From NCBI GenBank assembly GCA_964422845.1, contig CAYRCT010000002.1, positions 1 to 40,650 of the forward strand: a stretch of 40,650 nt of DNA, written 5' to 3'. The notes below the pieces were generated by a model. It ran no database searches. It saw nothing but the letters and a program-made list of their open reading frames with translations, and was not told the origin of the DNA. The translations under genes and the position numbers were made by a program. The stretch is from an uncultured Candidatus Saccharibacteria bacterium (GTDB taxonomy: Bacteria; Patescibacteriota; Minisyncoccia; Minisyncoccales; PEYH01). Shown here piece after piece: positions 5,998 through 37,039 of the stretch; positions within the stretch are counted from its first letter, which is position 1; every line of letters begins with the position of its first letter.

Positions 5998-6708
5998 TTA
6001 ATGTATTTTTATCTTATCCTTTTTCTGTTTAATTTTCAACCAAATAGCGAAGATAAGCATTGAAGCAAACGAAGAGACGACCAAACCGATTATTAATAGA
6101 AAAGAAAATCCTGAACCATTAGAAACCGTCGAAACTGTTTTTATATTTTTTTCTTTTGTGATTTTCGTTTTAGGACTGTTCTCTTGAGCTGGTGTGCCTC
6201 CGGTTTTCTGACTTGTTTTCCAATTGTTTGAATCTGATTCAAATAAGATTGAATCAATTCGTTCCATTGTTTTTTTAGTCTCATTACTACCGTTAAACCA
6301 ACCCAAAAGGCAATCTGTCTCATCAACTATTTCCCCAAGATTATTTAGAAGAATTAAATGCTCGCCTTGATTATTTAGTCCCCCTTTATAAATTTGGTGA
6401 GCAGAAATTTCAGGAACAGTAGTGTCATCAGTTCTCTCTAATAAAAAATAGGAGCGCGCTCCTATTTTTCCTGATAACTCTATTTTTGGACTGTCGTCTT
6501 TCGCTTTTAAAATCCACTTATCAAGCGAAATAGGCGAGTCAGTTGGATTATATAATTCAATCCACTCATTTTGCCACTGTTCTTCTGTCCCCATCCATGC
6601 GATTTCGTTAATAACGATTCTTTTTTCTTGACCTGAAACAAAATTGACTGGGAAAATAGTCAGTATTGCGAAAATTAAGAAAAGATAAGTTAAGATTTTA
6701 ATGTTCAA
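5998..6708 (-). CDS. secreted/membrane-anchored lamin-tail-domain (LTD) protein
   Basis: N-terminal signal-like helix. LTD signature is VINEIAWMGT...NEWIELYNPT...GEHLILLN. There is a C-terminal TM helix followed by a KKDK tail. Confidence 0.7.
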   Translation of the reverse strand: MNIKILTYLFLIFAILTIFPVNFVSGQEKRIVINEIAWMGTEEQWQNEWIELYNPTDSPISLDKWILKAKDDSPKIELSGKIGARSYFLLERTDDTTVPEISAHQIYKGGLNNQGEHLILLNNLGEIVDETDCLLGWFNGSNETKKTMERIDSILFESDSNNWKTSQKTGGTPAQENSPKTKITKEKNIKTVSTVSNGSGFSFLLIIGLVVSSFASMLIFAIWLKIKQKKDKIKIH

Positions 6709-7898: not shown

Positions 7899-9212
7899 TT
7901 ATTCACCAGTTACCCGATTTATTTCTTCTATTGTGGTTACTCCTTGAAGAACTTTAATCAAGCCATCTTGACGCATGTATAGCATTCCGTTCTTAGATAT
8001 TAATTCTTCAATCTCAAAAATAGCTGGATTTTTTAAAATAAGCGCCTCAACCTCTTTTGTTATTAAAAATGCCTCAAAAATTCCTACTCTTCCTTTGTAT
8101 CCAGTAAAATTACAGTCTTCGCATCCTTTAATCTTAGGGATGCGAATTCCTTCTTTAATATTCAAATTAGAAAGAATAGATTTAGGCACATTTTTAAGAC
8201 TCTTTTTTATTTTTTCTTTTTCTTCTGCGGAAGCAGGCATTAAGGTCGAGCATTTTTTACAAACCTTTCTAACTAATCGCTGGGCAACTATCATATTTAT
8301 AGCAGGTCCGATATTAATAGCATTAGCGCCGAGAGAAGTAAGTCGGGGGATAGAGCCAGCTGCATCGTTGGTGTGCAAAGTGGAAAAGACTAAATGGCCG
8401 GTAAGCGCTGCTTGGAGAGAAATCTTAGCTGTTTCCAGGTCTCTTATTTCTCCTACAAGAATAACATCTGGGTCTTGTCTAACAATGGATCGTAGCCCGC
8501 TAGCAAAGTCATATCCCCTTTTAGCATTAATCTCTGTTTGAGAGGCACCTTTTAATCGGTATTCTATTGGATCTTCAATCGTAATAATCTTAATCTCTGG
8601 TTTTTGGATATACTTTAAAAAAGCATATAATGTAGTCGTTTTGCCTGAGCCAGTGGGACCAGTGATAATTATCATCCCATTGGGTTTCTGAATTTGTTTT
8701 TTGAAAAGTTCTGCAAGGTCATTTCTTAATCCAAGATCCTCTATATTTTTTAAACTTTCTGGATTTAGTATCCTCATTACTATTGATTCTCCAAAATCAG
8801 CTGGCAATGATGAGGTCCTAATTTCAATAAGTTGATCAACTTTATCTTCTGAAGGAAGCACAACCTCAAAGCTTCCGTCTTGAGGTTTATTATGAACATT
8901 TAGTTTTAATCCAGCTAAAAGTTTAATACGGGATAGCAGAAGACGATAAGTCTCGTTAGGGAGAAATAAAACATCGTGAAGCATTCCATCTAATCGTATC
9001 CTCATCTTAACTTTTTTTTCTTGTGGTTCGAAATGAATATCGGAAGCAGAGAGGTAAACACCGCCAGATAATACTACTCCTATAATATCTGTTATCTCCT
9101 TTTCTATATTTTTTTCAATCTCTTTTTGGAAAGAATCAATACCTAATACATTTTTTTTGATTGATGCAGCTTTTTCCTTAGAGATTTGTATTTTGCCGGT
9201 AACTTTAGCCAT
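7899..9212 (-). CDS. type II/IV secretion (GspE/PilB-family) ATPase
   Basis: Walker A is GPTGSGKTTT and the Asp box is EDPIEY. Walker B is PDVILVGEIRD and the His box is TGHLVFSTLHTN. The tetra-Cys motif is CKKC...CEDC. Confidence 0.85.
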   Translation of the reverse strand: MAKVTGKIQISKEKAASIKKNVLGIDSFQKEIEKNIEKEITDIIGVVLSGGVYLSASDIHFEPQEKKVKMRIRLDGMLHDVLFLPNETYRLLLSRIKLLAGLKLNVHNKPQDGSFEVVLPSEDKVDQLIEIRTSSLPADFGESIVMRILNPESLKNIEDLGLRNDLAELFKKQIQKPNGMIIITGPTGSGKTTTLYAFLKYIQKPEIKIITIEDPIEYRLKGASQTEINAKRGYDFASGLRSIVRQDPDVILVGEIRDLETAKISLQAALTGHLVFSTLHTNDAAGSIPRLTSLGANAINIGPAINMIVAQRLVRKVCKKCSTLMPASAEEKEKIKKSLKNVPKSILSNLNIKEGIRIPKIKGCEDCNFTGYKGRVGIFEAFLITKEVEALILKNPAIFEIEELISKNGMLYMRQDGLIKVLQGVTTIEEINRVTGE

Positions 9213-15382: not shown

Positions 15383-15399
15383 GATTTTGGGGAGATGTC

Positions 15400-15669
15400 T
15401 CAATGTTTTGTGACTTCGGCAAGAGGACGGGTAATCCTTGATTTTTTTCTGGCTGCTGTATTTTTTTTGATTATTCCAACTTTAGCCGCTTTGTCCACTG
15501 CCTGATAATATTTAGGAAGCAAGTTTTTTGCTTCTTTTGTTTTTTCCTCTTTAACCAAAGAAACAATCTGTTTTTTCAGATTTTTTATTACCTGCTTCTT
15601 TTCGCTATTATAGTCTCTTCTTTTGAGTTCTTGTCTTAATGTTTTTTTTCCTGATTTTGATATTGGCAT
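15400..15669 (-). CDS. rpsT: 30S ribosomal protein S20
   Basis: MPISKSGKKTLRQELKRR...AVDKAAKVGIIKKNTAARKKSR. The protein is 89 aa and basic. Confidence 0.9.
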   Translation of the reverse strand: MPISKSGKKTLRQELKRRDYNSEKKQVIKNLKKQIVSLVKEEKTKEAKNLLPKYYQAVDKAAKVGIIKKNTAARKKSRITRPLAEVTKH

Positions 15670-15853
15670 ATTTGTTCCACTTAACGAGGATTAGTTAAAT
15701 TGAAAATTAATTTTCGTTTACGATTGACAGAATACCACAGCTCCCAAAAATTTTCAAGTTTTTTGCGTTGATTAATGCGACATAATTCATTTAAAAAAGT
15801 TGAAAAATAAGATAAGATGAGCTAAAGTTAAGATAGAAACATTGGATAAAAAG

Positions 15854-16156
15854 ATGAAAAACATTCCTCAATTTTTAGAAAAATATTTTTGGGATGTGAA
15901 TTTTTCCGAATTAAGCAAGGAGAAACATCCTGAATTTATTATTGAGAGAATTTTGGAGAATGGTGATAAAAAAGCAGTTCAATGGATGAAAAATAATTTT
16001 TCTTTAGAACAAATTAAAAAAAAGATTTTAAACTCCAAAAATCTTTCTCCAAAATCAGCTAATTATTGGAGAATCATTTACAATTTAGATAAAAGCAAAA
16101 TTTTATGTCTAAAAAAATTATTTCAGAAAAAACAAAAGAGAATCTGGAAATATTAA
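15854..16156 (+). CDS. small protein, putative partner/antitoxin of the downstream AbiEii-type nucleotidyltransferase
   Basis: The FWDVNFSELSKEKHPEFIIERILENGD pattern recurs upstream of AbiEii-family genes (from memory). I prefer the ATG at 15854 to the TTG at 15842. Confidence 0.45.
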   Translation: MKNIPQFLEKYFWDVNFSELSKEKHPEFIIERILENGDKKAVQWMKNNFSLEQIKKKILNSKNLSPKSANYWRIIYNLDKSKILCLKKLFQKKQKRIWKY

Positions 16157-16725
16157 AAAAAGCAGGATTGCTTGATGATTTTTATCTTGCTGGTGGCACA
16201 GGACTGGCTTTGCAATTGGAACATCGCACTTCTATTGATTTAGATTTTTTTAGTCGAAGAGAGCTTGATAATCAAGCACTGCTTCAGAAGATAAAAAAAT
16301 TAGGCGATTTTTCTTTAGAAAAAGAGGCCGAGAATACCTTAACTGGCATATTTAATAATACGAAAATAACTTTTTTAACATATGATTATCCTCGTCTTTT
16401 CCCCTTTAAAGAGATTAATAATATAAAAGTTGCTGATATAAAAGATATTGTTTGTATGAAGATTTCCGCAATTTCTTCCAGGGGTAGCAAAAAGGATTTT
16501 ATTGATTTATTTTTTATCTGCCAGCAAGACATCCCTTTAGAAGAAATTTTAAAATTGTTTGAAAAAAAATACGAGAGTGTTGATTATAACATCACACATA
16601 TTTTAAAAAGTTTGTTATATTTTAAGGACGCAGAGAAAGAGCCAATGCCCGTGATGTTAGTTCCTGTGGAATGGGGAGAAATAAAAGATTTTTTTAAACG
16701 AACAGTAGCAAAATATAATCAATGA
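16105..16725 (+). CDS. nucleotidyltransferase, AbiEii/AbiGii toxin family
   Basis: FYLAGGTGLALQLEHRTSIDLDFF is the family's N-terminal nucleotidyltransferase motif, and KKDFIDL lies later in the protein. Length is 206 aa. Confidence 0.75.
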   Translation: MSKKIISEKTKENLEILKKAGLLDDFYLAGGTGLALQLEHRTSIDLDFFSRRELDNQALLQKIKKLGDFSLEKEAENTLTGIFNNTKITFLTYDYPRLFPFKEINNIKVADIKDIVCMKISAISSRGSKKDFIDLFFICQQDIPLEEILKLFEKKYESVDYNITHILKSLLYFKDAEKEPMPVMLVPVEWGEIKDFFKRTVAKYNQ

Positions 16726-28358: not shown

Positions 28359-30095
28359 ATGATAAATCAAGAAATAGCTAACATTTTATACGAGATTGGA
28401 TATCTCTTAGAAATAGAAGGGATTGCCTTTAAACCGCAGGCCTATGAAAAAGCGGCTATTGTTTTAGAAAATTTAAAACAAAGCATTGCTGACATATATA
28501 AACAAGGAGGAACTAAATCGTTGATAATTGTTCCCGGGATTGGGAATGGCATTGCTAAGAAAATAGAAGAGTATTTAATAACAGGGAAAATTAAGCATTA
28601 CGAAGAACTAAAAAAGAAATTTCCCGTAGACATTAATGGACTAATTGCCGTAGAGGGTGTAGGACCCAAAACAGTTAAAAGATTGTACAGAGAGTTAGGT
28701 ATAAAAAATGTAAACGATTTGGAAAGAATAGTAAAAGAGCATAAAATAGCACCTTTATTTGGTTTTGGAGAGAAGAGAGAGAAAAATATTTTAGAAAGTA
28801 TAAAATTTTTGAAAAAAAATAAAAGCAAATTTCTTTTGGGAGAAATTTTGCCCGCAGCGGACAAAATAAAAAATGTATTATGTCGATTAGCGGAAGTTAA
28901 AAATTTTAGCATTGCCGGTTCCTTGAGGAGAAAGAAAGAGACAATAGGAGATGTTGATTTTCTGGTTGTCTCAAACGAGCCCGAGAAAGTAATGGATGTT
29001 TTTGTAAAACAACATGGGATAATTAAAGTTTGGAATAGAGGAAAGACCAAAAGCTCAATTCGCTTGGACTCCGGGATTGACGTGGATTTAAGAGTAGTGC
29101 CTGCAAAAAGTTTCGGTTCCGCGCTTCAGTATTTTACAGGGTCTAAATATCATAATATTGCTTTAAGGAAAATAGCCATTGATTTGGGTTTTAAACTCAA
29201 CGAATATGGGCTTTTTAAGGGACACAAAATGATTGCCGGAAGGAGTGAAAAGGGTATTTATAACGCACTGGGAATGGATTATGTGGCACCGGAACTTAGA
29301 GAGAATAAAGGAGAAATAGAGGCGGCTTTGGAAAACAATCTTCCCAGATTGATTAATTATGGAGATATCAGAGGAGATTTGCATTGTCATTCTAGTTGGG
29401 ATGGCGGGAAAAATTCTATTAAACAAATGGCGGAAACAGCCATGAACATGGGTTATCAATATCTTGGGATTTCCGATCATACTAAATTTTTAAGAATAGA
29501 AAACGGACTTAACGAAAAACAACTTGTTCAACAAAGGAAGGAGATAAATAAATTAAATTTACGATTCGTAGCGCGTAATTTAGAATTCAAAATTTTGCAG
29601 GGAGCAGAAGCCAATATTTTAAAAGACGGTTCGATTGACATAAACGACGAAGCCCTTAAAAAATTAGATTATGCTATTGCTGGCATTCATTCTCATTTTA
29701 AGCTTTCTAAAAATCAAATGACGGAAAGGATTATTAAAGCGATGAGAAATCCACACATAAAGATTATTTCTCATCCTACGGGCAGGATTTTGAAAAGAAG
29801 AGATGAATACCAAATTGATTTTGATAAAATTTTGCGCGCAGCTAAAGAAACGAACACTATTCTAGAGATTAATTCTTTTCCTAGCAGAATAGACTTAAAC
29901 GATATTAATGTTAGGAGGACAAAATTAGCGGGAGTGAAAATGGTGATTAATAGTGATGCTCATCATAAAAATCATTTGCGATTTATCGAATTTGGAATTG
30001 CTCAAGCTCGACGTGGTTGGGCAGAGAAAAAAGATATTATTAATACTGCTCCTCTTAATGGATTGTTGGGGATAAAAAAATTATTGGAATTTTAG
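28359..30095 (+). CDS. polX: family X DNA polymerase with C-terminal PHP domain (PolX)
   Basis: N-terminal HhH segments NQEIANILYEIGYLLEIEG and GIGNGIAKKIEE. The Pol-beta nucleotidyltransferase motif is GSLRRKKETIGDVDFLV. PHP motifs are GDLHCHS and SDAHH. Confidence 0.9.
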   Translation: MINQEIANILYEIGYLLEIEGIAFKPQAYEKAAIVLENLKQSIADIYKQGGTKSLIIVPGIGNGIAKKIEEYLITGKIKHYEELKKKFPVDINGLIAVEGVGPKTVKRLYRELGIKNVNDLERIVKEHKIAPLFGFGEKREKNILESIKFLKKNKSKFLLGEILPAADKIKNVLCRLAEVKNFSIAGSLRRKKETIGDVDFLVVSNEPEKVMDVFVKQHGIIKVWNRGKTKSSIRLDSGIDVDLRVVPAKSFGSALQYFTGSKYHNIALRKIAIDLGFKLNEYGLFKGHKMIAGRSEKGIYNALGMDYVAPELRENKGEIEAALENNLPRLINYGDIRGDLHCHSSWDGGKNSIKQMAETAMNMGYQYLGISDHTKFLRIENGLNEKQLVQQRKEINKLNLRFVARNLEFKILQGAEANILKDGSIDINDEALKKLDYAIAGIHSHFKLSKNQMTERIIKAMRNPHIKIISHPTGRILKRRDEYQIDFDKILRAAKETNTILEINSFPSRIDLNDINVRRTKLAGVKMVINSDAHHKNHLRFIEFGIAQARRGWAEKKDIINTAPLNGLLGIKKLLEF

Positions 30096-30169
30096 AAATA
30101 TTAGATTATAATAAAGAATTGCAGAAGTCGTTAAGTTTAAAAATAATTAATAATTAATTTATAAAAATT

Positions 30170-33100
30170 ATGAACAATTATTCTCAAAAAAATAAAATAA
30201 AATTTTCTAAATTTATTTTTTCTCTAGTTTTTGTAAATATTTTAGTTTTAATTTTTGTTATTAATATTAAAAGAGTGGATGCTTATTCTCCAATCCCTCC
30301 AGGATATAAGTTTGAGAATAATCTTGATCTAAATGATCGCAACGAAGACGTCAAATATTTGCAAAAATTTTTAGAATATCAAGAATTTTTTCCCGCAGAT
30401 ACAAACACTGGTTATTTCGGAAATATAACCAATAAAGCAGTGATTAAATTTCAAGAAGAATATTCAGACGAGATTTTAAAACCGTGGGGGATATCTTATG
30501 GAACAGGACATGTAGGTAGAACTACCATTGCAAAACTTAATAAATTCCTTGATGTTTTTGACGAAAATAATCCCAGTATTCCTTGGCCAGAACCGTTATC
30601 GGACAATACAGCGGGTCGCGAAGAATACGAGCAAAGATTTCCATCGTCAGAGTCGCAATCTATCAAGGAAGTTTATCAAACTCCCTCCGGTCATTCCATA
30701 AACATTGTGGTGATTGTTAATTCCGTTCTCCAGAATTCTATCCAAGATTCGCTAGATCAATATATTGTAGATTTAGAGAATGACGGATATTCAGTTACAC
30801 TAGTCAGTTATAGCGGGGGTACGCCAAAGAAATTAAAGACCTATTTACAAGAGAGATATTCAAATGGTTTAGATGGTTGTTTATTAATAGGAGATCTTCC
30901 AGTTCCTTGGTTTCATCGAGCCTATCGTAATCAATACCGCCAAGTTGTGCAAGAGGAATTCCCTATAGACTTGTATTATATGGATTTAGACGGAAGTTGG
31001 ACTGATTCTAATCGCGACGGAACACTTGATGTTCATTCAGATGGATCGGGAGATAAGGAGCCAGAAATATGGGTAGGAAGACTTACTGCTTCTTCTTTGG
31101 GGAACGAAGCTGAATTGTTGAAAAATTATTTCATTAAGAATCACAAATACAGAACAGGTGTTTTATTGTTAGAAAATAAAGGTTTAGTTTACTCTGATGA
31201 CGATGGGAACAGTTATTATCCATTAGATTTAGCATACGACAAAGTTACTACTATACATAATAGGACCACAACTAATAGTATAGATTATGAAAGAAGACTT
31301 ACCCAAAACTATGAATTTGTTTATGTAGCGGTTCATTCTTCTCCTCAATTTCATCGTTTTGAAATACCTGGCGGATGGGACGGATTCACTTATAATCACG
31401 AAATAAAGTCTATTGATCCAAAAAGTTCTTTCTATCTTCTTAACGCTTGTTCTAATTCAAGATATACCTCACCTCAATATATGGGAGGTCATTATATTTT
31501 TTCAGATACTTACGGATTAGTGGCAATAGGAAGCACCAAGGCATGTAATATTTTAGATACAAGGTCTTACTTTAAAACTCTTGGGAGTGGAGGGAGTTTT
31601 GGAGACGCACTTAAAAATTGGTGGATTAGCAGGGCTCCTTATGGAGAAATGGATCGTCATCTTTTTTATGGCGTGACTTTATTAGGAGACCCTACACTTA
31701 AAGTTTCTAGCAAAATGGTAACCATTTCTCCGGACGTTGCTTCAAATACGTATTCCGAAATCAAAGAAAAAGAGTGTGCTACCAAAGGATGCAGTAATTC
31801 AGTGATCTTTGAGTGTTCAGAATTCGAATGCGATCCAGCTTCAGACGGAAGACTTGTTATTTCTCTTAATGGAGATTACGATTCTCCTGGTAAATACTCT
31901 AAAATATATATTGATGATAATTATCTTGCTGATATAGGAAGCTTTAATCCAGGAACTGCTTGCGAGTGGCAATCCGAAACTCTTACTATTCCAAAATCCG
32001 ATCTTCAATCATATTTTTCAGACGGTTTTTTAGAAGTAACATTTAAAGATCAAAATGAAGTTGATTGCTGTTGCAACTCTAAACATAGAGCTAGCCTGGA
32101 ATTTGAATATGAAAACACAGAAGAAGATTCTACTGGTAATAAAACAGATCAAGAAGATCCTGTCTCCGGAACTATTTCTATAAACAAAACAAGAGCAAAT
32201 ATTGGGGAGATTATTACACTCACAGTTACAGGAGAAGACGATAATGGTCTTAATTCTCTATGGGCTAATTACCAAGGGGATTGGCACGAGGAACAAGTTA
32301 ATGGGACTGAAGCTACTAAATCGTTTGCTTTTTCTGAATCAAAAGTAGGAACTTATAAATATTATGGTTATGTATATGGCTCTAAATTAAACGGGGATTC
32401 AGAAAACACATGGACAGAACCGAGTGTGGCAACGGTAGTTATTGAAAGAGACACAGATTCTGGAGACTCTGGTGGAGACTCTGGTGGAGATTCGGGCGGA
32501 GATTCTGGAGGAGATTCTGAAACAGACACCGGAGGAAACATCGAAATAGAAATCAAAATAGATATCACAGAAGATACTACAGAGAACATCACTTGCTCCG
32601 ACACAGATCAAGGTGACATTTATATTAAGGGCTATTGCGAGGATTCTCACCACACGAATGATGGTTGGGACGTATGCTCTGACGACGTATCTCAAGGAGG
32701 ACTATCAGAATATACTTGTAGTAATTCGTGCTCGGGTCAGAGTGATTCAGAAAACACTTTCTCGTGCTCGGGTCAGAGTTGTAATCTTGAAGATTCAGAA
32801 CATGCTTGCAGTGATTCATCCTCGAGTCAAAGTTGTAATATTAAACATTATTCTTGTCCCAATGGATGCAAAGACGGAGCTTGCATTAAAGATAAAGCAG
32901 AGCAAGCAGAGCAAGAAGACCCTGTTTCCGGAGCTATTTCCGTAAACAAAGAAACAGTCAATGTTGGGGAGAATATTACACTCACAGTCACAGGACAAGA
33001 CGATAATGGGCTTAATTCTCTATGGGCCTATTACCAAGGGGATTGGCACGAGGAACAAGTCAGCGGGACTGAAGCTACTAAATCATTTACTTTTTCTGAA

Positions 33101-33928
33101 TCAAAAGCAGGAACTTATACATATTATGGTTATATATATGGCTCTAAATCAAACGGAGAGTCAGAGAATGCATGGACAGGGTCGAGTGTGGTAACGGTGA
33201 TTGTTGGAGGAGATACAGACTCTGAAGGAGACGCTACAGAAGACAATTCTTGTTCCGACACAGACAAAGGGAATATTTATGCTAAGGGATATTGTGAGGA
33301 TTCTCGCCACATAAACGATGGTTGGGATATGTGCTCTGGTGGAAACGACTTGTTAGAATATAATTGTGTTGACTCATCTTCTGGTAAGGTTTGTGGGACA
33401 AAACATTATTCTTGTCCCAATGGATGCAAAGATGGGGCTTGTATTAGGGATTCTGTAGAAGAAACTACAGAAGATAATTCTTGCTCTGACACAGACAAAG
33501 GGAATATTTATGCTAAGGGATATTGTCATGATTCTCGTGGAACAAATAATGGTTGGGATATGTGCTCTGGTGGAAACGATTTATTAGAATATAATTGTGT
33601 TAATTCATCTTCTGGTCAAGTTTGTGGAACAAAGCATTATTCTTGTCCCAATGGATGCAAGAATGGGGCTTGTATTAGGGATTCTGCAGAAGATACTACA
33701 GGAAACATCACTTGCTCTGACACAGACAATGGAAACATTTATTTTAAGGGATATTGTCATGATTCTCGTGGAACAAATAATGGTTGGGATATGTGCTCTG
33801 GTGGAAACGATTTATTAGAATATAATTGTGTTAATTCATCTTCTGGTCAAGTTTGTGGAACAAAGCATTATTCTTGTCCCAATGGATGCAAGAATGGGGC
33901 TTGCGAGTTTGCCAATGTCACCATGTAA
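30170..33928 (+). CDS. giant secreted modular protein: PG-binding domain, clan-CD (gingipain-like) peptidase-like domain, Ig-like and 8-Cys repeat modules
   Basis: 1252-aa ORF with an N-terminal hydrophobic helix. The PG_binding_1-like motif is DVKYLQKFL...GYFGNITNKAVIKFQ. The His/Cys contexts are YVAVHSS (H389) and YLLNACSNS (C427). It has 2 Ig-like and 4 Cys-rich modules. Confidence 0.8.
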   Translation: MNNYSQKNKIKFSKFIFSLVFVNILVLIFVINIKRVDAYSPIPPGYKFENNLDLNDRNEDVKYLQKFLEYQEFFPADTNTGYFGNITNKAVIKFQEEYSDEILKPWGISYGTGHVGRTTIAKLNKFLDVFDENNPSIPWPEPLSDNTAGREEYEQRFPSSESQSIKEVYQTPSGHSINIVVIVNSVLQNSIQDSLDQYIVDLENDGYSVTLVSYSGGTPKKLKTYLQERYSNGLDGCLLIGDLPVPWFHRAYRNQYRQVVQEEFPIDLYYMDLDGSWTDSNRDGTLDVHSDGSGDKEPEIWVGRLTASSLGNEAELLKNYFIKNHKYRTGVLLLENKGLVYSDDDGNSYYPLDLAYDKVTTIHNRTTTNSIDYERRLTQNYEFVYVAVHSSPQFHRFEIPGGWDGFTYNHEIKSIDPKSSFYLLNACSNSRYTSPQYMGGHYIFSDTYGLVAIGSTKACNILDTRSYFKTLGSGGSFGDALKNWWISRAPYGEMDRHLFYGVTLLGDPTLKVSSKMVTISPDVASNTYSEIKEKECATKGCSNSVIFECSEFECDPASDGRLVISLNGDYDSPGKYSKIYIDDNYLADIGSFNPGTACEWQSETLTIPKSDLQSYFSDGFLEVTFKDQNEVDCCCNSKHRASLEFEYENTEEDSTGNKTDQEDPVSGTISINKTRANIGEIITLTVTGEDDNGLNSLWANYQGDWHEEQVNGTEATKSFAFSESKVGTYKYYGYVYGSKLNGDSENTWTEPSVATVVIERDTDSGDSGGDSGGDSGGDSGGDSETDTGGNIEIEIKIDITEDTTENITCSDTDQGDIYIKGYCEDSHHTNDGWDVCSDDVSQGGLSEYTCSNSCSGQSDSENTFSCSGQSCNLEDSEHACSDSSSSQSCNIKHYSCPNGCKDGACIKDKAEQAEQEDPVSGAISVNKETVNVGENITLTVTGQDDNGLNSLWAYYQGDWHEEQVSGTEATKSFTFSESKAGTYTYYGYIYGSKSNGESENAWTGSSVVTVIVGGDTDSEGDATEDNSCSDTDKGNIYAKGYCEDSRHINDGWDMCSGGNDLLEYNCVDSSSGKVCGTKHYSCPNGCKDGACIRDSVEETTEDNSCSDTDKGNIYAKGYCHDSRGTNNGWDMCSGGNDLLEYNCVNSSSGQVCGTKHYSCPNGCKNGACIRDSAEDTTGNITCSDTDNGNIYFKGYCHDSRGTNNGWDMCSGGNDLLEYNCVNSSSGQVCGTKHYSCPNGCKNGACEFANVTM
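32153..33904 (+). repeat. intragenic module array in gene 1
   Basis: Ig-like modules lie at 32153-32446 and 32915-33205. A GGDS 12-nt tandem repeat lies at 32456-32518. The 8-Cys modules lie at 32594-32884 (expanded), 33251-33442, 33482-33673 and 33713-33904. Confidence 0.85.
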
Positions 33929-34084
33929 TCAGAAAAGAATAATTTTTTTAAGATAATTAAAGTTCTAATCTTTGCTAAAACGAAATTTAAAAGTTCCGGA
34001 ATTACGGGGCTTTTAAGATATTAAGAATAATATTTAAAAATGTATTTTAAATATCTGTTTTTGTTTTCTCTACAATTTTCTCAA
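33929..34084. repeat. copy 1 of a ~156-nt downstream flank (copy 2 at 37040-37195)
   Basis: My hand alignment gives roughly 90 percent identity. It includes a degenerate copy of the 37101-37125 terminator and the last 12 codons of rplT. Confidence 0.85.
34047..34084 (-). pseudogene. relic 3' fragment of rplT (last 12 codons plus stop)
   Basis: It reads EKIVEKTKTDI*, against the intact rplT C-terminus EKIIEKTKTDI* at 37158-37193. There is no upstream rplT body. Confidence 0.75.
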
Positions 34085-34200
34085 TGCGATTTATCGAATC
34101 TGGCATTGCTCAAGCTCGACGCGGTTGGGCAGAGAAGAAAAACATTATTAATGCTCAATTTTTAAAAAAGTTATCAACATTCTTCAGCGCTAAATAATTC
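34085..34200 (+). pseudogene. relic 3' fragment of polX
   Basis: 34085-34152 aligns to 29977-30044 with about 6 mismatches in 68 nt. Its frame reads RFIESGIAQARRGWAEKKNIIN, against the genuine RFIEFGIAQARRGWAEKKDIIN. Confidence 0.75.
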
Positions 34201-34249
34201 GTATTTTTTATAAATTAAGGTTATCATAAATTAATAATCATAATTATTA

Positions 34250-37039: not shown

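Follow-up and report, generated by a model that had tools for sequence, protein, structure and literature searches.

Introduction

Bacteria of the candidate phyla radiation (CPR) lack most biosynthesis and depend on partner cells, and the molecules that act at the interface between the two remain largely unknown. The question addressed here is whether two neighbouring giant genes in a 40,650-nucleotide (nt) stretch of DNA from an uncultured Candidatus Saccharibacteria bacterium (contig CAYRCT010000002.1; the whole stretch is referred to below as the window) encode such interface molecules and, if they do, whose cell wall their products address. The two genes, which we call g1 (30170–33928, + strand; 1252 amino acids, aa) and g2 (34250–37039, +; 929 aa), encode exported modular proteins and jointly take up 16.1% of a window that is otherwise a streamlined housekeeping stretch; the first of them has also been assembled independently in JGI and ENA metagenomes. 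A preliminary description of the locus, made from the sequence alone, had read the pair as a candidate adhesin/protease system directed at the wall of a partner cell. Its account of the open reading frames (ORFs) proved exact, down to their coordinates and their share of about one sixth of the window, and so did most of its domain assignments, whereas the partner-wall reading fared less well. In the sections below we first examine the protease domain of g1, then the export signals, wall-binding domains and repeated tails common to both proteins, and finally the origin of the pair, which lies in a tandem duplication.

The protease domain of g1

The module map of g1 (30170–33928, +) runs from an N-terminal signal or anchor helix through a PG_binding_1 domain, a C25 peptidase and a Cys-containing domain without a known fold to a tail of immunoglobulin (Ig)-like and Cys-rich modules. 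The catalytic domain, Peptidase_C25 of clan CD, occupies aa 159–514 (30644–31711, +), on the evidence of the Pfam profile PF01364, an AlphaFold2 (AF2) model, Foldseek and profile–profile alignment. When the head was scanned by itself (aa 130–640), PF01364 matched with 46.6 bits (cut-off 23; E 3.7e-12) over profile positions 25–374 of 374. The scan of the whole protein against Pfam and NCBIfam, in contrast, returned no peptidase, and no Peptidase_C25 match even at E ≤ 1, a false negative that was cured by the head-only scan. Perhaps the repeat-rich, compositionally biased tail of g1 masks the match, and such masking may be why proteins of this kind go unannotated.

Homologues of the head are numerous, with at least 510 matches among 5.8 billion proteins, the best of them 52% identical and most of them carrying PF01364 (31 of the 36 that were aligned match this profile); those with a named source come from Zixibacteria, Marinimicrobia, Calditrichales, Planctomycetes and Deltaproteobacteria. 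The 36-sequence alignment has 23 invariant columns, among them H389 and C427 (H260 and C298 in head numbering), the His and Cys that the preliminary description had singled out as a candidate catalytic dyad, and their codons, CAT at 31334–31336 (+) and TGT at 31448–31450 (+), were checked. In the AF2 model built from the same alignment, in which the predicted local distance difference test score (pLDDT) exceeds 90 at most positions of head residues 30–385, each of the two residues directly follows a beta-strand (E254–258 and E292–295, head numbering). Foldseek places the gingipains Kgp (6i9a_A, E 3.8e-12, TM to target 0.52) and RgpB (4ief_D, E 1.2e-10, TM to target 0.56) first and second among PDB entries, followed by SAVED-CHAT, DdvA and separase, all of clan CD, and because the gingipains and then CHAT and separase rank in this way we assign the fold of the head to clan CD, as had been proposed.

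The correspondence of the dyad with that of the gingipains was examined with a gingipain-side profile (A3) built from RgpB residues 208–352 (PDB 4ief_B and 1cvr_A), in both of which H211 and C244 stand at their published positions once the numbering is checked. Over 174 columns, the profile–profile alignment (hhalign) sets VAVH(389)SS of g1 on YTGH(211)GS and LLNAC(427)SNS on FDVAC(244)VNG, and it also sets GDPTL of g1 on the gingipain GDPSL. Several results limit the strength of this link: identity to the gingipains in the Foldseek alignments is only 13–15%; phmmer and profile HMM (hidden Markov model) searches of the PDB sequences with g1 or with the head alignment A1 did not reach the gingipains at E ≤ 10; when A1 was compared with one RgpB fragment by hhalign and hmmsearch, the GDP motif alone was aligned; and the profile–profile alignment is itself weak when taken alone, at E 0.09. 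We nevertheless count H389 and C427 as the likely equivalents of RgpB His211 and Cys244, and the dyad as apparently intact, because the residues that are invariant in the family fall on the catalytic ones, in agreement with both the Pfam match and the fold. By HMM, fold and dyad g1 is thus a member of Pfam family C25, although it falls outside the gingipains proper.

The surroundings of the catalytic domain differ from those in the gingipains. Neither PF03785 (Peptidase_C25_C) nor Por_Secre_tail was matched in the whole-protein or head-only Pfam scans of g1, and the place of the gingipain immunoglobulin superfamily (IgSF) domain is taken by aa 517–662 (31718–32155, +), a region with eight Cys, including a CCC triplet, in which the AF2 pLDDT stays below 50 and for which we found no Pfam or NCBIfam match and no similar sequence among the fetched proteins. 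On the N-terminal side, some 30 residues (aa 128–158) lie between PG_binding_1 (aa 57–127) and the modelled catalytic domain, and about 80 between PG_binding_1 and the start of the Pfam C25 match at aa 207. A role of PG_binding_1 as a protease prodomain, in the style of the matrix metalloproteinases, was considered and rejected, since g2 and its relatives carry PG_binding_1 without a protease.

Export signals and predicted wall-binding domains

Both proteins begin with a signal-like hydrophobic segment, and in both the only 19-aa windows with a Kyte–Doolittle hydropathy above 1.6 are N-terminal. Residues 1–38 of g1 (30170–30283, +) combine a Lys-rich n-region with a 20-residue hydrophobic core and the putative cleavage site VDA|YS, and would serve either as a Sec signal peptide or, given the longer core, possibly as an uncleaved signal-anchor. 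The N-terminus of g2 (MFKIMNKKFK, a 15-residue core and the small-residue motif AKA|LT) looks like a typical Sec/signal peptidase I signal with a predicted cleavage. At the other end, the hydropathy scan found no C-terminal hydrophobic segment in either protein, and no LPXTG-like motif was seen on reading the two C-termini. Both proteins are acidic (pI 4.4) and rich in Cys, at 3.75% in g1 and 3.12% in g2 against 0.60% in the 33 other ORFs of the window.

The export signal is followed in each case by PG_binding_1, at aa 57–127 of g1 (30338–30550, +) and aa 79–149 of g2. The PF01471 matches, which span aa 57–98 of g1 (26.9 to 30.8 bits) and aa 79–122 of g2 (28.4 bits; gathering score 23), cover profile positions 1–41 of 57, and on reading the sequence the third helix follows after a short insertion; the two domains are 41% identical over 82 aa. 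In g2 (34250–37039, +) the signal occupies aa 1–31 and a heptad-like coiled coil, recognized by reading the sequence, aa 33–58, N-terminal to PG_binding_1, and the domain is followed by an Ig-like Kre9_KNH domain (aa 164–251; 27.4 bits, cut-off 24.6), a PKD domain (aa 264–355; PKD_4, 36.7 bits, cut-off 27) and three units of an Ig module plus a Cys module. The signal or anchor helices, the PG_binding_1 domains and the beta-sandwich and PKD-like domain of g2 that had been described beforehand are thereby borne out.

The window encodes a class A penicillin-binding protein and a Mur ligase, as well as a PilB-type ATPase, and on account of the first two the producer is taken to build its own murein. 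With this, with the position of PG_binding_1 next to the export signal, and with the same layout in the single-gene relatives described below, the domain is best read as a tether to the producer's own wall. The competing explanation, close to the preliminary one, is a cooperating two-gene system in which PG_binding_1 would dock on the murein of the host, the C25 domain would remodel or breach the partner envelope, and the Cys/Ig arrays would stabilize attachment. It draws on the presence of PG_binding_1 in both proteins, on the intact dyad and on the adjacency of the genes on the same strand, and it has general precedents, since an episymbiotic way of life is frequent among CPR bacteria and the lysins of phages bind their target murein via PG_binding_1. 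Against it, the producer has a murein of its own, and PG_binding_1, standing beside the export signal, marks the cell-proximal end of the protein. C25 enzymes are, moreover, protein endopeptidases and are not known to act as murein hydrolases, so that the cross-links of a partner wall are not substrates known for them. Together with the genetic evidence considered below, these points lead us to regard a partner-wall system as unlikely.

Ig-like and Cys-rich modules of the tails

The tails of both proteins are built from two kinds of module that recur at the DNA level, as five 300-nt Ig copies with 82–87% identity and six or seven Cys-module copies with 72–87% identity. The proximal tail of g1 (32156–33202, +), as mapped from module boundaries, HMM matches and DNA repeats, comprises an Ig module (aa 663–757), an acidic GDS-repeat linker, an elongated form of the Cys module with 12 Cys (aa 809–905) and a second Ig module (aa 917–1011), and is followed by a distal tail (33251–33904, +) of three tandem 64-aa eight-Cys modules (aa 1028–1091, 1105–1168 and 1182–1245) with a period of 231 nt, the last of which is followed only by EFANVTM at the C-terminus. 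In the g2 tail (35336–37015, +), Ig modules at aa 363–457, 547–641 and 754–848 alternate with Cys modules at aa 475–538, 682–745 and 859–922. Of the earlier picture of alternating Ig-like and eight-Cys modules in both tails, the modules themselves stand, but strict alternation is confined to g2: the order in g1 is Ig, the 97-aa 12-Cys variant, Ig and then Cys, Cys, Cys, and one of the g2 Cys modules has nine Cys.

The Ig module is modelled by AF2 as a confident beta-sandwich that resembles CARDB, PKD and MG2 domains. The 64-aa Cys module, on the other hand, belongs to no curated family that we could find: neither the copies in the window nor 53 diverse members gave a Pfam match, NCBIfam gave none, and the best hit of its profile among PDB sequences was at chance level (E 1.1). 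A word-indexed homologue search with an Ig plus Cys unit returned two fragments only, but an HMM search run exhaustively over 1.84 billion cluster representatives recovered 221 Cys-module proteins at E ≤ 1e-3, mostly with several copies each. The commonest form has six Cys, with the consensus CtDSDGGnyYvKG…D.C…L.EYyC…Y.CPNGC.DGACi (as a pattern for the 64-aa module, C-x-D-[ST]-D-G-G-x-x-Y-Y-x-K-G…D-x-C…L-x-E-Y-x-C…C-P-N-G-C-x-D-G-A-C); the window-type module has two more Cys, at positions 15 and 48. Both of them are present in 27 modules, both absent in 287 and discordant in 12, a co-occurrence that fits an extra disulfide, as would be expected.

Proteins that carry Cys modules also contain CARDB, Kre9_KNH, Big_7 and archaeal S_layer_C domains. 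One of them, P0148 (1351 aa; contig L010, 1453–5508), has ten Cys modules and no Pfam domain, and its gene adjoins those for Spt5 (NGN+KOW), SecE, FtsZ and FKBP; because of these neighbours we take the contig to be archaeal, and the Cys-module family would consequently span bacteria and archaea. On these profile searches, the Cys module appears to be an uncurated family without a Pfam, NCBIfam or PDB relative.

Tandem duplication and related loci

The housekeeping genes of the window include ruvABC, yebC, tsaE, holA, polX, greA, rplT, rpmI, infC, smpB and the gene for transfer-messenger RNA (tmRNA), and g1 and g2 sit in the slot between polX and rplT. The gap between them holds a junction that accounts for their adjacency. 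Positions 33900–34084 match 37011–37195 with 87.6% identity over 185 nt (blastn, E 6.5e-63), and the latter block contains the 3' end of g2 with its hairpin terminator and the final ~38 nt of rplT. The left half of the junction (33929–34084) is therefore a copy of the region 3' of g2, including a copy of the hairpin terminator (33987–34016) and of the rplT end, and the right half (34085–34155, +) is a copy of the 3' end of polX (29977–30047; blastn, 90.1% over 71 nt, E 9.7e-23); the rplT and polX fragments abut exactly at 34084/34085. A 37-aa ORF at 34085–34198 (+; MRFIESGIAQARRGWAEKKNIIN…), annotated as a gene in L001, another assembly of the same population, is accordingly a pseudo-ORF, being a piece of the polX C-terminus that the tandem duplication copied and left behind. 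The intact hairpin, a GC-rich palindrome between T runs at 37098–37127, is a candidate bidirectional terminator serving g2 and rplT.

The pair thus arose by a lineage-specific tandem duplication of the unit 29977–37195. At the DNA level the flanks and tails of the two copies are 77–90% identical and the N-terminal halves are unlike, and because of this difference we infer that the head of g1 was replaced or strongly diverged after the duplication, or that the tails were homogenized by gene conversion.

Two related loci point to the direction of the change. In an ENA contig and a GTDB metagenome-assembled genome of an uncultured Candidatus Saccharibacteria bacterium (L006 and L007), whose housekeeping proteins are 54–79% identical to those of the window, GreA, HD_3 and PolX are followed by one giant Cys-module protein (P0145 and P0146, the latter in L007) and then by L20 and IF3, with L35 and SmpB in addition in L006. 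The scan of GTDB species genomes yielded one related locus. No C25 gene is present in the L006 or L007 locus, and the expectation that the same gene pair would recur in related genomes was not borne out. The plan of g2, namely a signal, a coiled coil, PG_binding_1 and shuffled Ig and Cys modules, is common to P0145, P0259, P0180 and P0265 of related Patescibacteria and, more loosely, to P0146 of L007, with Kre9_KNH, CARDB or Big_7 among the intervening domains; identity is 35–43%, and each member has its modules in an order and number of its own. Unlike the window pair, they are single-copy at their locus and have no protease paralogue. A C25 head is absent from all of 149 Cys-module proteins, and none of the 120 best C25-head homologues has PG_binding_1 or Cys/Ig modules. 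Of the two, g2 keeps the ancestral architecture and g1 is the derived copy, which carries the C25 domain.

These findings bear directly on the alternatives. For a partner-wall system, it matters that the pair is not conserved, the syntenic loci having one gene and no C25, and that the adjacency of g1 and g2, which had counted in its favour, is explained by the duplication; the terminator scan did find no terminator-like site between the genes, as a cooperating pair would have it, though the degenerate copy of the g2 hairpin lies there at 33987–34016.

The same junction bears on the idea that g1 and g2 form an S-layer-like coat or sheath, in which the C25 domain would mature or sort the proteins of the envelope by processing or transpeptidation. 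Gingipains process themselves at domain borders, and PorU is a sortase-like enzyme of the C25 family. Possible targets can be seen in the window in the K/R after Cys modules (…GACI[KR]), most modules ending in I-K/R, or in the common C-terminus C-E-[FL]-[AI]-[NA]-VTM, g1 and g2 being near-identical there, and Cys modules do occur with archaeal S_layer_C in P0156 and P0160. A sortase-like mechanism in type IX secretion (T9SS) is also on record (PMC4560394). The shared C-terminus, however, is explained by the duplication, which reaches ~155 nt beyond the stop codons, and relatives without C25 end differently (P0145), from which it follows that the family needs no C25 partner; the best Foldseek matches, furthermore, are gingipains proper. 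We consider a sorting or maturation role distinctly improbable. We also considered, and rejected, the idea that the C25 domain reads a sorting signal at the C-terminus, since the duplication that encloses the common C-terminus runs on beyond the stop codons.

Variation among strains

The same population has been assembled in at least four other metagenomes, and comparison with them locates the variation in the repeated genes. Relative to assembly L001, the window has 1 mismatch in 14.6 kb of upstream flank and 1 in 3.3 kb downstream, and 13 mismatches in the 2.79-kb g2 gene, with five amino-acid changes, of which S400N and R402Q turn one Ig module, by inspection, into the sequence of a sister module. 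In g1, all four other assemblies that reach the tail (L001 to L004; 33482–33904 compared) have one 77-aa Cys module plus linker fewer, an in-frame difference of 231 nt that leaves two distal Cys modules instead of the three found here and a protein of 1175 aa instead of 1252 aa. The repeated tails thus probably recombine and yield strain-level variants.

It could be argued that the pair is an artefact of mis-assembled repeats, or that g1 is a duplicate in decay whose pseudo-protease has no function. Contigs do break frequently inside g1 (L002, L003 and L005), the number of modules differs among assemblies, and the junction between the genes is a pseudogene-like scar. Yet both frames stay open for 3.8 and 2.8 kb, at least four independent assemblies have identical heads, and the dyad and the 23 family-invariant residues are retained. 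The repeat copies, moreover, differ by 13–28% in DNA, which makes collapse or chimeras less likely, so that assembly collapse is not an obvious cause of the indel. An artefact or a gene in decay is, on this evidence, hardly credible.

Relation to known systems

The gingipains RgpB and Kgp of Porphyromonas gingivalis (MEROPS family C25, clan CD; PDB 1CVR, 4IEF, 4RBM and 6I9A) are one point of reference for g1. They resemble it in Pfam family, as best fold match, in the dyad of a His and then a Cys at strand ends, in the C-terminal GDP[ST]L motif, and in a general plan in which a catalytic domain is followed by non-catalytic adhesin-like modules in a surface-displayed protein. They differ in that identity is only 13–15% with no direct HMM link, and in that the gingipain prodomain, the Peptidase_C25_C IgSF domain, the haemagglutinin/adhesin domain and the T9SS C-terminal domain were not detected in g1; the gingipain producer is a diderm of the Bacteroidota, whereas that of g1 is a CPR bacterium and anchoring would proceed via an N-terminal PG_binding_1. 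Another is an uncharacterized C25-like subfamily of uncultivated bacteria, whose catalytic domain is 34–52% identical to that of g1 over ~360 aa, shares the 23 invariant residues including the His and the Cys, and precedes adhesion or anchor modules that vary among the members (dockerin, He_PIG, PKD, Big, FlgD_ig, TSP3 or T9SS), PG_binding_1 and modules of the g1 type being present in none of the best 120.

As regards Cys-rich surface proteins, large extracellular proteins that bear signals, contain several percent Cys and vary among strains have been reported from Ca. Peribacteria, another CPR lineage, with a proposed role in attachment and a weak similarity to Myxococcus Cys-rich repeats, though without a module definition (Anantharaman et al. 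2016, PMC4736985). The products of g1 and g2 match this class in size, signal, Cys percentage and strain variation, and differ from it by their distinct 64-aa module and by the protease fusion, which is not described there. The VARTIG proteins of Thermococcales, which are large secreted surface proteins with Ig/CARDB domains, encoded at variable loci and often recombining in their distal modules (PMC8416519), offer an analogy only: their sequences are unrelated, the organization of the loci is different, and they have neither the Cys module nor C25.

Our literature search found no paper linking C25 peptidases or gingipains with CPR/Patescibacteria. The architecture of g1, which joins PG_binding_1, C25 and an Ig/Cys array, thus appears to be undescribed, as the preliminary description had supposed, and to be absent elsewhere in searchable data, including the best 120 C25 homologues and the 149 Cys-module proteins. 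What the locus offers is a new combination of mostly known parts with an uncurated domain family, and no new kind of system.

A proposed model of wall-tethered fibrils

The evidence is, in our judgement, best accommodated by a model in which g1 and g2 are surface fibrils tethered to the producer's own wall, one of them displaying a protease, that arose by tandem duplication and have recombining tails; we hold this to be probably correct. According to the model, both proteins would be exported by Sec and held non-covalently on the producer's murein by PG_binding_1, to which an uncleaved hydrophobic helix, where there is one, would add a membrane tether. The disulfide-stabilized tail would point outward as an adhesive or structural fibril, and g1, to judge from the modelled fold and the aligned dyad, would place an active protease at the cell surface, where it would most plausibly cut partner-cell or environmental proteins, either for the scavenging of peptides and amino acids or for access to the partner surface.

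Some observations weigh against this model. A gingipain-type prodomain of ~200 aa was not detected in g1, which leaves the control of its activity unexplained. The Cys module shows no resolved fold in the AF2 model of an Ig plus Cys unit (6-row alignment), its pLDDT being ~30. The variation in module number could stem in part from the short-read assembly of repeats. Finally, PG_binding_1 could equally bind the murein of a partner.

A wider proposal takes the Cys module to be an undescribed extracellular domain of ultra-small, partner-dependent lineages, both CPR bacteria and DPANN-like archaea, in which it would act as a unit of attachment to the partner, with g1 as the first such fibril armed with a gingipain-type protease. 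We put this forward tentatively, as a less likely possibility.

Other features of the window

Several further features were recorded. A full-length tmRNA (38253–38594, −; Rfam, 133 bits) was not reported by ARAGORN; it overlaps the 3' end of the smpB ORF (38587–39036, −) by 8 nt. The gene for an AbiEii-type toxin, a nucleotidyltransferase of a type IV toxin–antitoxin system (16105–16725, +), overlaps the start of ruvA, and the 720 nt upstream of it (15383–16104), in which there is no ORF of at least 120 aa, might hold the antitoxin. Between ruvB and yebC lies a gene for a protein with a lamin-tail domain (LTD), in a region with features at 5998–6708 (−) and 7899–9212 (−); near it are the PilB-type T2SSE ATPase gene and then a 364-aa ORF without a Pfam match, which could belong to machinery for type IV pili or competence. 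The ORFs at 27–794 (+; 255 aa) and 855–2342 (+; 495 aa) have no Pfam match and fall in the part of the window with the highest GC and AT skew.

Implications

The locus yields two candidates for molecules of the CPR–partner interface: a surface protease that belongs to a well-studied family of virulence factors, and a compact, disulfide-rich module family that lies beyond current domain databases. Its clean duplication junction also shows how surface proteins may diversify: a gene is duplicated in tandem, its head is exchanged, and modules are added or lost. Current views are not overturned by these findings, which extend two existing themes, that of gingipain-like modular proteases and that of Cys-rich surface proteins in the CPR. 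If the wider proposal on the Cys module is true, g1 would serve an episymbiont as a 'feeding' or penetration device at its surface, one whose diversity stems from tandem duplication and from recombination among modules.

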